A stretch of 24,000 nucleotides of DNA from Dermatophilaceae bacterium (lineage in GTDB: Bacteria > Actinomycetota > Actinomycetes > Actinomycetales > Dermatophilaceae): the NCBI GenBank assembly GCA_035654835.1, contig DASRVZ010000008.1:13815-37814 (forward strand), written 5' to 3'. The notes beneath the pieces were generated by a model, which ran no database searches, was not told where the DNA came from, and saw only the letters and a list, made by a program, of their open reading frames with translations. Made by a program: the position numbers and the translations under genes. Shown piece by piece: positions 5,269 to 19,916 of the stretch (position 1 is its first letter; every line of letters starts with the position of its first letter).

Positions 5269-5680
5269 GTATCCCTTTCTCGACCCTTCTTCCGTTTACA
5301 TAACGTGGGGAGGACTGCCAGGATTCCTTCGTTCCGGTGGCCGGGGTCGATTGCTCGACAGCCGGCAGGGAAGGGACTGAGCTCGTCGCCTTCTGGTACA
5401 GGCAAGTCTGGGTCGGCCCGTCAAAGGACGGGACCCGCACGCCGGAGACTCGGGCGCCCGCGCACACCAGCAGATCCCATCCGTCCTGGCCGCGGACCGA
5501 CCTAGAGGCAGGAAGCCGACGAGGGCAGGAAACCATCATGTCGATAGCTCCTTTCGGCCCTATCGGGCTCACAGAACTCGGCGAACGATAGAAGAACGGA
5601 GAGAGGTGTGCCATGAGTAGCGCAACCCAGGGCGAGCGGCCTACCCAGACATCTGCGGCCGGTGTCTGGCTCGGACGGGC

Positions 5681-5980
5681 ATGGGCGCCGTCGCGCTGAT
5701 ACCGGTTTTCTTCATCATCGCCTTTGCAGTGGGCCAGGTCCTGTACAGCCTGATGGGCTACCTACCCGAAAACGCCGGTATCCCCTTGTGGGTGGACCTG
5801 GTTGCCACCATTCCAACCATGGCTGTGTTCTTGGTCCCCTGCGCGGCAGCCGTTCTCTACGGCAGGCGGGTCAACAGCGTCGGCGACCGCCGCGGCCTGG
5901 TCCCTCTGTGCATCGGAGCGTTGGCCGGTCTCGGGCTCCTGATGCTAAGCATTGTCACGATCATCTCCAGCCACCTGTAG
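5681..5980 (+). CDS. Small integral membrane protein (3 predicted TM helices)
   Basis: Three hydrophobic stretches: ALIPVFFIIAFAVGQVLYSLMGY, LVATIPTMAVFLVPCAAAVLY and LVPLCIGALAGLGLLMLSIVTII. The SD at ATG 5681 is weak. A much stronger SD serves an out-of-frame ATG at 5613 (see findings). Confidence 0.6.
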   Translation: MGAVALIPVFFIIAFAVGQVLYSLMGYLPENAGIPLWVDLVATIPTMAVFLVPCAAAVLYGRRVNSVGDRRGLVPLCIGALAGLGLLMLSIVTIISSHL

Positions 5981-6207
5981 TCCGTGACGCACGTTCACCA
6001 TCGCGGCCTGAGCGTGGGTTGTCTCTCGGCTGTTGGCCCCGATCAGTGCCTGAGCGCAGCAGTCGACGACTTCGAAAACCGGCGTTGGGTCTCAAGACGC
6101 ATGGCACTTGTTGGCGGTTCTGGGCCCCGTCGACGCAGGCGGGACGGTGCCAGAAGTCGTCACGTCACCATCGAAGACACGTCGGCTGACCCGCAGGCCG
6201 TCCGGGA

Positions 6208-6537
6208 TCAGTCCTCTGTCGCGGTGGCCAGGCCCAGCTCGTCGAGCACCCGTGGCTCGTCGGTGAAGTCGCCGATCAACACCCGCACGGGAAGGGGTAG
6301 CTCCTTGATCAGGGTTGGTACCGCCAGCACCCCCCGGGAGAAGACCTCTGCGGGCTGCTCGTAGATGTCGACGATGCTCAGGTCGTAGCCGAAGAGTGCG
6401 TGCCGGTCGCACATATCGCGCAGCCGGCGCTCTGCCCGGGCTGAGGCGGGGGAGGTCCCGCTGACGAACAGGGTTAGGTGTAGCCGTCCCGGGTTGGGCG
6501 CACTTCCCTGTTCGTGCGGTTCGGTGGGGGTGCTCAC
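6208..6537 (-). CDS. kaiB: Circadian clock protein KaiB homologue
   Basis: LTLFVSGTSPASARAERRLRDMC..YDLSIVDIYEQPAEVFSRGVLAVPTLIKELPLPVRVLIGDFTDEPRVLDELGL matches the remembered Synechococcus KaiB pattern (LKLYVAG.TP.S..A...L..IL...Y.LKVIDV..NP.LAE...ILATPTL.K.LP.PVRRIIGDLSD..KVL). The GTG start overlaps the kaiC TGA as GTGA (6534-6537). Confidence 0.92.
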   Translation of the reverse strand: MSTPTEPHEQGSAPNPGRLHLTLFVSGTSPASARAERRLRDMCDRHALFGYDLSIVDIYEQPAEVFSRGVLAVPTLIKELPLPVRVLIGDFTDEPRVLDELGLATATED

Positions 6538-8261
6538 GGTTCGTTCTCCGGGTATCTGACGGTGCGCCGTCGCCCTTGCGCTAGCCGGTCCAGCCGCACC
6601 GCTTCCAGGCGCTGTTGGCTCGCCTCGATCAGTTCTCGGGCCAGTCTTTCCTCGGCCGCAAAGTCAGCCAGCAGTGTGGCCACGTGCGCGTCGACCGTCT
6701 CCCTGCGGCGCTCCAGCGCGCTGGCCAGCTCCGCGGACTCCAGCGACAAGGTCTCGGCGGCGGCCCGCTCGGCGCTCTCCGCAGCGACGCGCGCCGAACC
6801 CGTCAACACCCCCTGGTCGCCGATGACCACTGGGACGACGTCCACCCCAAGGTCGCTGAGCACGAACTCGCGGATCTGGTTCGAGTGGGCCATGCCACGG
6901 CTCTTCATTACGTAAAGTCCGCGGTTGCGCTCTCCAAAAGCGCTCAGCATGACGACCTCCAACGAGGTGTTGACCAACGATGAGATGTTCAAGATGACCT
7001 GCTCCACCCCGGCTTCCTCGCTCAGCACCGTCATCACGGCCGTGATGCCGGCCGACTTCAGGTAGTAGACCTGGCGCATCAGCATGGCCGAGACGTCGAA
7101 AGGAGTCGCACCGCGGGCCAGGCTGCTCACCGGATCGATCACCACCAGCGTCGGGGAGAACTCCCGGATCAGCCGCTGCATCAGGACCAGGTGGTCCTCC
7201 AGCCCGCGGGTGGTCGGCCGCTCGCACTGGAAGCGCAGCAGCCCCCGCTGCACCCAGCCAGCCAGATCCAGCCCCACTGAGGCCATGTTGCGGTAGATCT
7301 CAGACTCGGACTCCTCGAAGCTGAAGAACACCACCTTCTCCCCGCGTCGGCAGGCGGCGTCGGCGAAGTTCGCTGCGATCGTCGTCTTACCGGTGCCAGA
7401 CGTCCCGCTGATCAGGACACCACTGCCCCGGAACACACCGTGCCCGCCGAGCATCGCATCCAGCCCAGCTACGCCGGTGGAGACCCGATCGTTGCTGACA
7501 TCCTGAGCCAGACCCAGCGCGGTGATCGGCAGCACCTCGAGGCCGTCAGCGCCGATCAAGAACGGGTACTCGTTCCTGCCATGCGTTGAGCCGCGGTACT
7601 TCAGCACCCGTAGTCGCCGGGTGGCGACGTCCAGGACCACCCGGTCGTCCAGGACCACCACGCAGTCGGACAGATAGGCCTCAATGCCGTGCCGGGTGAG
7701 CGTGCCCTCGCCACGCTCCCCGGTGATCACGGTGGTCAGATCGTTGTCCTTGAGCCAGCGGAACAGCCGCCTCAGCTCGGACCGGACCAGAGACGGTTTG
7801 TCGAAGGCGGCGAACAACGCCTCCACGTTGTCGATGGCGACCCGTTTCGCACCGACCTTCTCCACGGCAAAAGCCAGGCGGACCATCAGCGCCTCGAGGT
7901 TGAAGTTGCCGGTATCGGCGACCTGGGGCTCCAAGGCCAGCGCGTCGACCAGCAGCCGGCCGTCCGCCTCCAGCCCGTCAAGGTCGAAGTTGAGCGAGCC
8001 AACGTCGGCCACCACGTCGGCCCGGTCCTCCTCGAAAGTAACGAACACTCCCGGCTCGGCGTAACGCGTGACGCCGTTGACCAGGAACTGCAGTGCAAAC
8101 AGGCTCTTGCCCGCGCCCGGCGGGCCGCACACCAGGCTGGGTCGCCCAGTCGGCAGTCCACCGTCGGTGATCTGGTCAAAACCCCCTATCCCCGTCGGGC
8201 TCTTGGACAACACCGAGCGCCGCTGTCCATCCAAGCCTTCGACGTCAGCGTTAGTCACCAT
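6534..8261 (-). CDS. kaiC: KaiC homologue (double RecA/KaiC ATPase domains) with an extra helical C-terminal tail
   Basis: - Two Walker A motifs: CGPPGAGKS and SGTSGTGKT.
- Catalytic Glu pairs in both halves: VTFEED and FSFEESE.
- LKYRGSTHG and VMKSRGMAHS motifs.
- A Ser-Ser pair (NISSLV, codons 6978-6983) sits where S. elongatus KaiC has S431/T432 (HISTITD).
- The last 88 aa (6537-6800) are Ala/Glu/Leu/Arg-rich helix.
- Start: ATG 8261 (MVTNADVEG) is preferred because GGAGCGGG lies 4 nt upstream. The track start at 8279 has no SD. Confidence 0.95.
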   Translation of the reverse strand: MVTNADVEGLDGQRRSVLSKSPTGIGGFDQITDGGLPTGRPSLVCGPPGAGKSLFALQFLVNGVTRYAEPGVFVTFEEDRADVVADVGSLNFDLDGLEADGRLLVDALALEPQVADTGNFNLEALMVRLAFAVEKVGAKRVAIDNVEALFAAFDKPSLVRSELRRLFRWLKDNDLTTVITGERGEGTLTRHGIEAYLSDCVVVLDDRVVLDVATRRLRVLKYRGSTHGRNEYPFLIGADGLEVLPITALGLAQDVSNDRVSTGVAGLDAMLGGHGVFRGSGVLISGTSGTGKTTIAANFADAACRRGEKVVFFSFEESESEIYRNMASVGLDLAGWVQRGLLRFQCERPTTRGLEDHLVLMQRLIREFSPTLVVIDPVSSLARGATPFDVSAMLMRQVYYLKSAGITAVMTVLSEEAGVEQVILNISSLVNTSLEVVMLSAFGERNRGLYVMKSRGMAHSNQIREFVLSDLGVDVVPVVIGDQGVLTGSARVAAESAERAAAETLSLESAELASALERRRETVDAHVATLLADFAAEERLARELIEASQQRLEAVRLDRLAQGRRRTVRYPENEP

Positions 8262-8612
8262 TCGCCCGCTCCGATCCATGCAACCAGTGCCAACTCTTAA
8301 TTATCGGACTGGTGCAAGCCAAATAACAGCCCAATCTTCATGAGGACTGAAGAGCTCAACCGCGGTATTGCGGCAGCCAACGACCAGGCAAGGCCGGCTA
8401 GCTACTTACGGGAAACACCAGCGCGCACCGGCCACGACCTGTCCCTCGTTTGATGACGTCCTGGACAGGATTGGTGGTCAGGGCTGGCCCCCTCCAGCAC
8501 GTAAACTCGGTGTAAGCACGTGGTGCCGACCGTTAACGCACGATCCCTCTGGTTACGGTCCCGCGCTGCGGGTGAGCCGCCAAACCGGCAGCGCAAGACG
8601 AGGGACCCCAAG

Positions 8613-19274: not shown

Positions 19275-19916
19275 TCAGACATCGCGAGCCAGCATGAAGA
19301 ACTCCTGCCGCGAGCGCGCGTCCTCGCGCAGTACACCGTGGACAGAGGAGGTTATGGTCCGCGAGCCCCTGGCCTGGACCCCGCGCATGGACATGCACAT
19401 GTGCTCAGCCTCGATCACGACGCCGACTCCCTTCGGGGCGAGGTGCTCCTTCAGCCACGTCGCGACCTGGACGGTGAGCCGTTCTTGAACCTGGAGGTCG
19501 CGGGCGAACAGTTCGACGACGCGGGCCAGCTTGGACAGGCCGAGAATCCGTTTGCCCGGCAGGTAGCCAACGTGGGCTACCCCGGAGAACGGCAGCATGT
19601 GGTGCTCGCACAGGGACTGCACTGGGATGTTCTTGGCCAGCACAAGCTCGTCATAGTCCTCGTCGTTGGGGAAGGTCGTGAGGTCGAACTCACGTGGCGT
19701 GAGCATCTCGGTGAGCGACTCCGCCACCCGGCGGGGGGTATCCGCGAGGTGCGGCGAGGAGGGGTCACGGCCAAGGGCCAGAAGAAGGTCGCGCACCGCC
19801 CGTTCAGCGCCTGGCAGGTTGACTTCTTGGCGGCCATGCACAACGCGCAGACGCCGACCTCCATCCGATCCGCCGATCGGTACCGCGACCTCATGCTCGA
19901 GTTCGGCAGTGCTCAT
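19275..19916 (-). CDS. folE: GTP cyclohydrolase I
   Basis: Diagnostic motifs SLCEHHMLPF, GLSKLARVVELFARDLQVQERLT and VIEAEHMCMSMRGV. RBS GAAGGGACGGG lies before ATG 19916. Confidence 0.93.
   Translation of the reverse strand: MSTAELEHEVAVPIGGSDGGRRLRVVHGRQEVNLPGAERAVRDLLLALGRDPSSPHLADTPRRVAESLTEMLTPREFDLTTFPNDEDYDELVLAKNIPVQSLCEHHMLPFSGVAHVGYLPGKRILGLSKLARVVELFARDLQVQERLTVQVATWLKEHLAPKGVGVVIEAEHMCMSMRGVQARGSRTITSSVHGVLREDARSRQEFFMLARDV

Follow-up and report, generated by a model that had tools for sequence, protein, structure and literature searches.

What kind of timer can a kaiC-kaiB pair form in a bacterium that is neither a cyanobacterium nor a phototroph, and which partner could read its state? 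The question is raised by a 24,000-nucleotide stretch of a Dermatophilaceae genome (GenBank assembly GCA_035654835.1, contig DASRVZ010000008.1, positions 13,815 to 37,814), which is called the window here and whose numbering is used throughout. Its minus strand carries a kaiC gene directly followed by kaiB, and a gene for a GAF-ANTAR protein lies divergently beside kaiC on the plus strand. A preliminary description of the sequence had taken the kai pair for a KaiA-independent timer of the kind known from Rhodobacter sphaeroides. Homology supports this proposal, since the KaiC match to the R. sphaeroides structure 8DBA extends through the C-terminal tail, the tree places the protein beside that KaiC, and the R. 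sphaeroides KaiB is the best solved match of KaiB. We consider it quite probable that the locus, which belongs to a member of the Dermatophilaceae (Actinomycetota), works as a KaiA-independent kaiC-kaiB operon of the kaiC2 or R. sphaeroides type.

The kaiC product is a KaiC with two tandem KaiC/RecA-like ATPase domains. Pfam PF06745 matches two stretches of it with 328 bits, and with the NCBIfam model NF006799, "circadian clock protein KaiC", it reaches 643 bits (cut-off 408); the family searches proposed in the preliminary description thus returned the expected families, including PF07689 for KaiB. Both Walker A loops and both catalytic glutamate pairs listed there are in place. Residue numbers below are those of a 575-residue protein unless the 581-residue open reading frame is named, and all kai coordinates refer to the minus strand. 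The CI domain has the Walker A loop GPPGAGKS at residues 46–53 (8103–8126), invariant in 30 homologues, and the pair E77/E78 (8028–8033), which corresponds to E62/E63 of the R. sphaeroides protein (KaiC-RS). Similarly, the CII domain has GTSGTGKT at residues 286–293 (7383–7406) and E316/E317 (7311–7316), equivalent to KaiC-RS E302/E303.

Of all solved structures, those of the R. sphaeroides KaiC dodecamer (8DBA, 8FWI and 8FWJ) match the sequence best (E 5e-170). In the alignment with 8DBA, residues 24–570 of the 581-residue open reading frame pair with residues 5–554 of the 568-residue chain, tail included. Among the structure entries, KaiC-RS scores 570 bits, in comparison with about 343 bits for cyanobacterial KaiC. 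A Foldseek search with the predicted KaiC structure also ranked 8FWJ_A and 8DBA chains first, over 530–566 aligned columns. The AlphaFold model is of moderate quality because its alignment is shallow (mean predicted local distance difference test, pLDDT, 67), and it was used only for secondary structure and for this ranking. Identity to KaiC-RS is higher than identity to Synechococcus elongatus KaiC in every part of the protein: 58% versus 42% in CI, 44% versus 35% in CII and 30% versus 8% in the tail.

The presumed phosphorylation sites point the same way. The motif NISS occupies residues 425–428, and its serine pair S427/S428 (codons 6978–6983), which had been assigned to the phosphosite position in the preliminary description, indeed aligns with S413/S414 of KaiC-RS and with S431/T432 of S. 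elongatus KaiC. The same two residues align with the glutamate pair of the S413E/S414E phosphomimetic 8FWI, and they are invariant in 30 homologues. Of the residues that Pitsawong et al. (PMC10076222) assign to the KaiC-RS allosteric network, S413, S414, Y436 and R450 are identical here; L438 is replaced by Met and V449 by Ile.

A neighbour-joining tree was built from 147 sequences, comprising representatives of 50%-identity clusters gathered by an exhaustive HMMER search, KaiC-RS, S. elongatus KaiC (checked to be identical to 1U9I) and sequences derived from the loci compared. The window KaiC falls within a Dermatophilaceae clade that adjoins a group of KaiC-RS and Syntrophorhabdales sequences, all of which have the Ser-Ser pair and 100–121 residues after the REF motif. 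S. elongatus KaiC, with Ser-Thr and 49 residues after REF, is distant. The cyanobacterial KaiC model TIGR02655 gives 357 bits, under its cut-off of 546. Judged by this score, the Ser-Ser pair, the tail of 109 residues and the distance in the tree, the protein is not of the cyanobacterial KaiC1 type.

The extended tail recorded in the preliminary description is real: the protein continues for 109 residues beyond the REF motif and S. elongatus KaiC for 49, and the last 91 residues of the protein are rich in Ala (21%), Arg (15%), Glu (15%) and Leu (13%). The extension proper covers residues 504–575 (6537–6752) and begins at T504, the equivalent of KaiC-RS Glu490, at which Pitsawong et al. cut that protein short to take away its coil. 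AlphaFold predicts helices at residues 488–503 and 507–567, with pLDDT of 66–84 across residues 510–560; the second helix has 61 residues (6561–6743). In 120 homologues the hydrophobic tail positions 505, 512, 516, 523, 527, 530, 534, 540, 544, 545, 555 and 560 are conserved at spacings of 3, 4 or 7. The family-invariant residues of the tail (L512, L516, R519, V523, H526, V527, L530, D533, E537, L540 and L544) lie 3 or 4 apart, except for the neighbouring pair H526/V527. This spacing would suit a coiled-coil seam together with a second, offset seam. Two seams, for two registers of KaiC-RS, have been described by Pitsawong et al. (PMC10076222). The ratio of nonsynonymous to synonymous substitution rates (dN/dS) is 0.20–0.44 in the tail, like that of the whole kaiC gene (0.23–0.31), and the tail is therefore constrained coding sequence. 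A set of 147 related sequences was compared, for the most part representatives of clusters at 50% identity, to which reference sequences and sequences from the loci were added; in 104 of them at least 90 residues follow REF. By this comparison the long tail is the rule among the nearest KaiC relatives and no oddity.

The kaiB gene (6208–6537) encodes 109 residues and begins with GTG at 6537–6535. The kaiC stop codon TGA is at 6536–6534, so the two genes overlap in GTGA at 6534–6537, as the preliminary description had it, and the sequence GGAG lies at 6546–6549, 8 nucleotides upstream of the kaiB GTG. The identical four-nucleotide overlap occurs in most related loci. Both kaiC and kaiB are intact, translationally coupled genes under purifying selection. 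KaiB belongs to PF07689 (63 bits against a cut-off of 27), and its best solved match is the R. sphaeroides protein KaiB-RS (8FWJ_M, E 3e-15), with about 40% identity over 82 residues. Residues 1–19 of KaiB (6481–6537) form a conserved N-terminal extension rich in Pro and Glu, which neither KaiB-RS nor cyanobacterial KaiB has.

The upper boundary of the locus has to be moved. The preliminary description ended it at 8279, the start of the longest kaiC open reading frame (6534–8279, 581 residues). Both open reading frames of the span are present, but translation of kaiC probably begins at the second ATG (8261), which yields a gene at 6534–8261 and 575 residues. This start is preferred because a GGAG ribosome-binding site (8269–8272), conserved in the alignment of upstream regions, lies 7 nucleotides before it, because ATG 8279 is missing in that alignment from two related loci (L003 and L004), and because independent gene calls give 575 residues for an identical protein (P0001). 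About 35 nucleotides before the kaiC start lies a GATAAT box (8300–8305), a possible −10-like element proposed from its conservation only. A scan of 5600–9500 for consensus promoters and terminators stayed at chance level, and a full promoter at the GATAAT box was not found.

How might such a pair keep time? KaiC-RS forms a coiled coil and a dodecamer, autophosphorylates independently of KaiA and acts as an hourglass with KaiB-RS (Pitsawong et al. 2023, PMC10076222), in agreement with what the preliminary description stated about R. sphaeroides. The mechanism proposed here is taken from that study. KaiC hexamers would pair via their C-terminal helices into a dodecamer, which would keep the A-loop exposed and so allow KaiA-free autophosphorylation on S427/S428 at a high ATP/ADP ratio. 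As the ratio falls, KaiB would bind the ADP-bound CI ring, raise ATPase activity and favour dephosphorylation. The outcome would be an environmentally reset hourglass or energy-state timer rather than a free-running clock. For the output, the weakest step, the RNA-binding GAF-ANTAR regulator, whose divergently transcribed gene is the only conserved neighbour, would be the best candidate partner. Dodecamer formation, autophosphorylation, KaiB binding and timer behaviour are all inferred by homology.

Several points weigh against this picture and should be read together. W419 of the KaiC-RS allosteric network is Ser in the window KaiC. KaiB, which the preliminary description called bona fide, does stand as a PF07689 member whose best solved match is KaiB-RS; it nevertheless scores under the NCBIfam equivalog cut-offs (NF006798, 52.7 versus 110; TIGR02654, 50.5 versus 145) and is therefore a divergent KaiB, not one of the cyanobacterial type. 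A helical tail, as noted in the preliminary description, is predicted by AlphaFold (507–567), but a test of the single-sequence tail for heptad or 3.5-residue periodicity was not significant. Since this test likewise fails on the solved coiled coil of KaiC-RS, it is uninformative either way. BLASTP of tail against tail gives a marginal E of 0.68 with KaiC-RS. In a shuffle test the observed score was reached by 2 of 2000 shuffles (z 4.0), and any tail similarity beyond composition is marginal, being backed by this test only. In view of the periodicity and BLASTP results, the coiled coil and the dodecamer are inferred. The kinase that follows kaiB in some relatives has no tblastn match in the window. 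Finally, the heterotrophic host is known from metagenomes only, which makes a day-night role an assumption.

Other explanations of the same proteins must be set against the KaiA-independent timer. It is hardly conceivable that the name KaiC is wrong and that the protein belongs to the non-clock KaiC-like, RadA or RecA-superfamily ATPases; the weak secondary Pfam and NCBIfam matches to RecA, DnaB and RadA P-loop models that could suggest it span the P-loop only and lie far under their cut-offs, and the candidate was ruled out by the full-length KaiC match over both domains, the phosphosites, the adjacent KaiB and the place in the tree beside KaiC-RS, where the preliminary description had asked whether the protein would group with RadA-type ATPases. 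A self-sustained circadian oscillator made of KaiB and KaiC alone is very unlikely. In the closest characterised system, that of KaiC-RS, damping sets in unless an ATP/ADP cue is given from outside, and the system has been termed an hourglass. Moreover, no KaiA family match was found on any plausible gene of the 24-kb window, as had been noted at the outset, and KaiA is reported from cyanobacteria only (PMC5520375). It is somewhat unlikely that the pair is a stress or growth-phase switch instead of a day-night timer, with phosphorylation reporting energy state or culture age and tuning stress resistance. The host is a non-phototrophic member of the Dermatophilaceae from soil and peat metagenomes, the KaiC-RS mechanism is itself reset by the ATP/ADP ratio, and the solved matches of KaiB include the L. 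pneumophila structure 4KUN. The kai operon of Legionella pneumophila reportedly has a role in stress resistance. Work in Pseudomonas indicates that related KaiC-like proteins can serve stress resistance as well. Nevertheless, no other solved homologues come nearly as close to KaiC and KaiB as the R. sphaeroides pair, which is a demonstrated hourglass, and a heliorhodopsin gene on the same contig shows that the organism meets light, though this linkage is not conserved. An hourglass of the R. sphaeroides type is the reading followed here.

The heliorhodopsin gene (18393–19208, minus strand; PF18761, E 6e-97) adjoins a gene for GTP cyclohydrolase I (19275–19916, minus strand) and indicates a light-exposed lifestyle. 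It was considered as a member of the kaiCB module and rejected, because it lies about 10 kb from kaiCB and is absent from every other kaiCB locus.

To which output could the timer be connected? In the window, the gene next to kaiC (8613–9311, plus strand) encodes the GAF-ANTAR protein of 232 residues and is a conserved neighbour of kaiCB in the lineage. Pfam recognises a complete ANTAR domain in the protein (PF03861, 72 bits; cut-off 27) as well as a GAF_2 domain (57 bits), and the solved structures that match it best are NasR (4AKK), the response regulator 6WSH and Rv1626 (1S8N). Its AlphaFold model, with a pLDDT of 40, was not used. Of 18 distinct orthologous loci, 16 have an orthologue of this gene next to kaiCB. 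Three arrangements occur: divergent and upstream of kaiC (the window, L002–L007, L009, L031–L035 and L039), convergent after a kinase gene (L001 and L014), or convergent directly after kaiB (L021). The remaining neighbours all differ among these loci. The exceptions, without the gene beside kaiCB, are L008 and L011. Within the GAF domain, the motif LHPFxCPCR (residues 71–79; 8823–8849, plus strand) is invariant or nearly so across 120 orthologues and may be a redox, metal or cofactor site.

Some of these loci bear marks of mobile elements. A TrwC relaxase and an integrase are encoded near kaiCB at L008 (8161–14602), and L011 (12938–15333) is cut by a Mu-like transposase with an AAA protein, which leaves the kinase gene truncated. 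In L040, compared with L039, an IS21-type element stands in place of kaiCB beside an identical GAF-ANTAR protein.

A second candidate for the output is a kinase. A PAS-HisKA-HATPase histidine kinase is encoded directly 3′ of kaiB at L001, L002, L011–L015 and at Syntrophorhabdales and Chloroflexota loci, and is absent after kaiB at L003–L008, L031, L032, L034, L035 and L039. Some Dermatophilaceae metagenome-assembled genomes have two or three kaiCB copies (L015, L010 and L013), in which the divergent copies pair with kinases and not with the ANTAR gene. In L015 (DASVKO010000122.1), two convergent kaiCB clusters are accompanied by an extra kaiB, PAS kinases and a protein with seven PAS domains. 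A search with an ANTAR profile came up empty at the kaiCB loci of other phyla and at the more divergent kaiCB loci L010, L013 and L015.

We regard the GAF-ANTAR protein as a candidate partner of the KaiCB timer, one suggested by gene neighbourhood. The fuller proposal, that it became the KaiCB partner in this lineage, here in place of the PAS histidine kinase and in some relatives beside it, is tentative and by our estimate unlikely. It competes with the view that the adjacency is inherited synteny without a functional tie and that the timer in fact acts through a PAS histidine kinase whose gene lies elsewhere in the genome, to which we give just short of an even chance. All GAF-ANTAR/kaiCB pairings come from one family, two kaiCB loci (L008 and L011) do without the gene, and one strain (L040) keeps the identical protein with the IS21-type element where kaiCB would stand. 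Furthermore, no dual hairpin of the ANTAR-target kind lies near the kai genes, the protein has no receiver domain, and the kinase follows kaiB in L001, L002 and L011–L015 and in other phyla. Synteny alone accounts less readily for an adjacency that holds in 16 of the 18 orthologous loci and outlasts three arrangements and a complete turnover of the other neighbours, or for the paralogous kaiCB copies of the same genomes, in which the kinase is present and the ANTAR gene absent. Should the GAF-ANTAR protein be the partner, the timer's state would be read out, or else set, through RNA (antitermination or translation) rather than through a two-component DNA-binding cascade. No Kai output outside cyanobacteria would have been defined before it, and it would act post-transcriptionally.

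RNA signals around the locus were examined with the same partner in mind. The GAF-ANTAR gene is preceded, within 8502–8612 on the plus strand, by a conserved putative −10 box (TAAACT at 8502–8507, which relatives have as TAGACT) and by roughly 100 nucleotides of leader that are conserved as well. Box and leader persist at loci where the gene does not border the kaiC 5′ end (L001, L014 and L021). The leader was considered as a structured RNA and rejected: it offers one 6-bp hairpin and one compensatory pair, with a folding z-score of −0.66. Rfam gave nothing real in the whole window, nor, under permissive settings, in the region between kaiC and the GAF-ANTAR gene. A strict scan of the window for ANTAR dual hairpins with the A1/G4 hexaloop produced 1 match against 2.0 expected and none near the kai genes; the sole match lies inside a GntR gene on the antisense strand. 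Since actinobacterial ANTAR targets are known to vary, this null result is weak.

How common is such a locus? KaiC relatives at 65–84% identity all come from Dermatophilaceae, Actinomycetales or Micrococcales metagenome-assembled genomes. More than 120 metagenome KaiC clusters share 77–88% identity, with lengths of 560–604 residues, mostly 572–576. Many such proteins have already been named KaiC by JGI or NCBI, and an identical GAF-ANTAR neighbour is assigned by NCBI to a Dermatophilaceae bacterium. Pitsawong et al. (PMC10076222) have also described a "large clade" within kaiC2 whose members share two serines and an extension of some 50 residues. The kaiCB pair alone is thus ordinary for its clade. 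What is new beyond it, a modest lead, is the conserved GAF-ANTAR neighbour together with the absence of the kinase at the window locus. The preliminary description held KaiBC in the Actinomycetota to be essentially unexplored, and the literature searched likewise yielded no paper on Kai proteins in Actinobacteria or Dermatophilaceae and none linking KaiC to ANTAR proteins. Reviews of non-cyanobacterial Kai proteins list Proteobacteria, Thermotogae, Chloroflexi and Archaea (including PMC5520375), and surveys state that the timer output outside cyanobacteria is unknown (PMC5520375). A gene attached to kaiCB through several rearrangements supplies a concrete, testable hypothesis of output, and the genomes with one kaiCB copy beside the ANTAR gene and further copies beside kinases likewise give one.

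Three further observations concern the surroundings. Downstream of the GAF-ANTAR gene, a gene-poor stretch of about 940 bp (9312–10251) has the lowest GC of that part of the window and contains a DUF3626 remnant (9474–9695, minus strand). It is followed by a cluster for the conversion of choline to glycine betaine (10252–17709, minus strand), with a GMC oxidoreductase, an OpuAC binding protein, a fused permease, an ABC ATPase and an aldehyde dehydrogenase. In the closest species-representative genome (84% identity), kaiC is split into two overlapping open reading frames (L014, 946–2669), through a frameshift or an assembly error.

Among known systems, the kaiC-kaiB-PAS kinase operons of related Dermatophilaceae and of other phyla (L001, L002, L011–L015 and L017–L028) contain the same KaiC and KaiB, at 63–84% identity within the family, and a network of KaiC, histidine kinase and response regulator has been described for Pseudomonas. 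The window locus has no kinase after kaiB. With the KaiABC system of S. elongatus PCC 7942 the locus has in common the KaiC fold, both Walker A loops, both glutamate pairs, the phosphosite position and the KaiB family. The S. elongatus KaiC differs in being only 35–42% identical, in its Ser-Thr pair, in its shorter tail and in its need for KaiA, and its output runs through SasA, CikA and RpaA, none of which is seen at the window locus. The neighbouring protein shares the full ANTAR domain with the regulators AmiR, NasR, EutV and Rv1626/PdtaR. Its sensor is a GAF domain in place of a receiver, and it is therefore not a canonical kinase substrate; the dual-hexaloop target RNA of such regulators was not found in the window.

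The closest parallel remains the KaiC-RS/KaiB-RS pair of Rhodobacter (Cereibacter) sphaeroides KD131 (8DBA, 8DB3, 8FWI and 8FWJ), whose hourglass is the only long-tailed KaiC system with a worked-out mechanism. The R. sphaeroides host is an alphaproteobacterial phototroph, whereas that of the window is an actinobacterium. The tails are only 30% identical, the window protein has Ser for W419, and its KaiB bears the additional 19 residues at the N-terminus. The R. sphaeroides operon includes a histidine kinase (Schmelling et al. 2017, PMC5520375), while at the window locus the GAF-ANTAR gene is the conserved neighbour instead. Nevertheless, both systems combine a double-domain KaiC, a Ser-Ser phosphosite and an adjacent kaiB without kaiA (here within the 24-kb window), and in both the extension starts at the matching position, runs for a similar length (about 77 residues in KaiC-RS, 72 here) and is rich in Ala, Arg, Glu and Leu, helical in KaiC-RS and predicted to be so here. 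The same architecture is well conserved in Actinomycetota of soil and peat, Gram-positive heterotrophs that are absent from the Kai papers searched.

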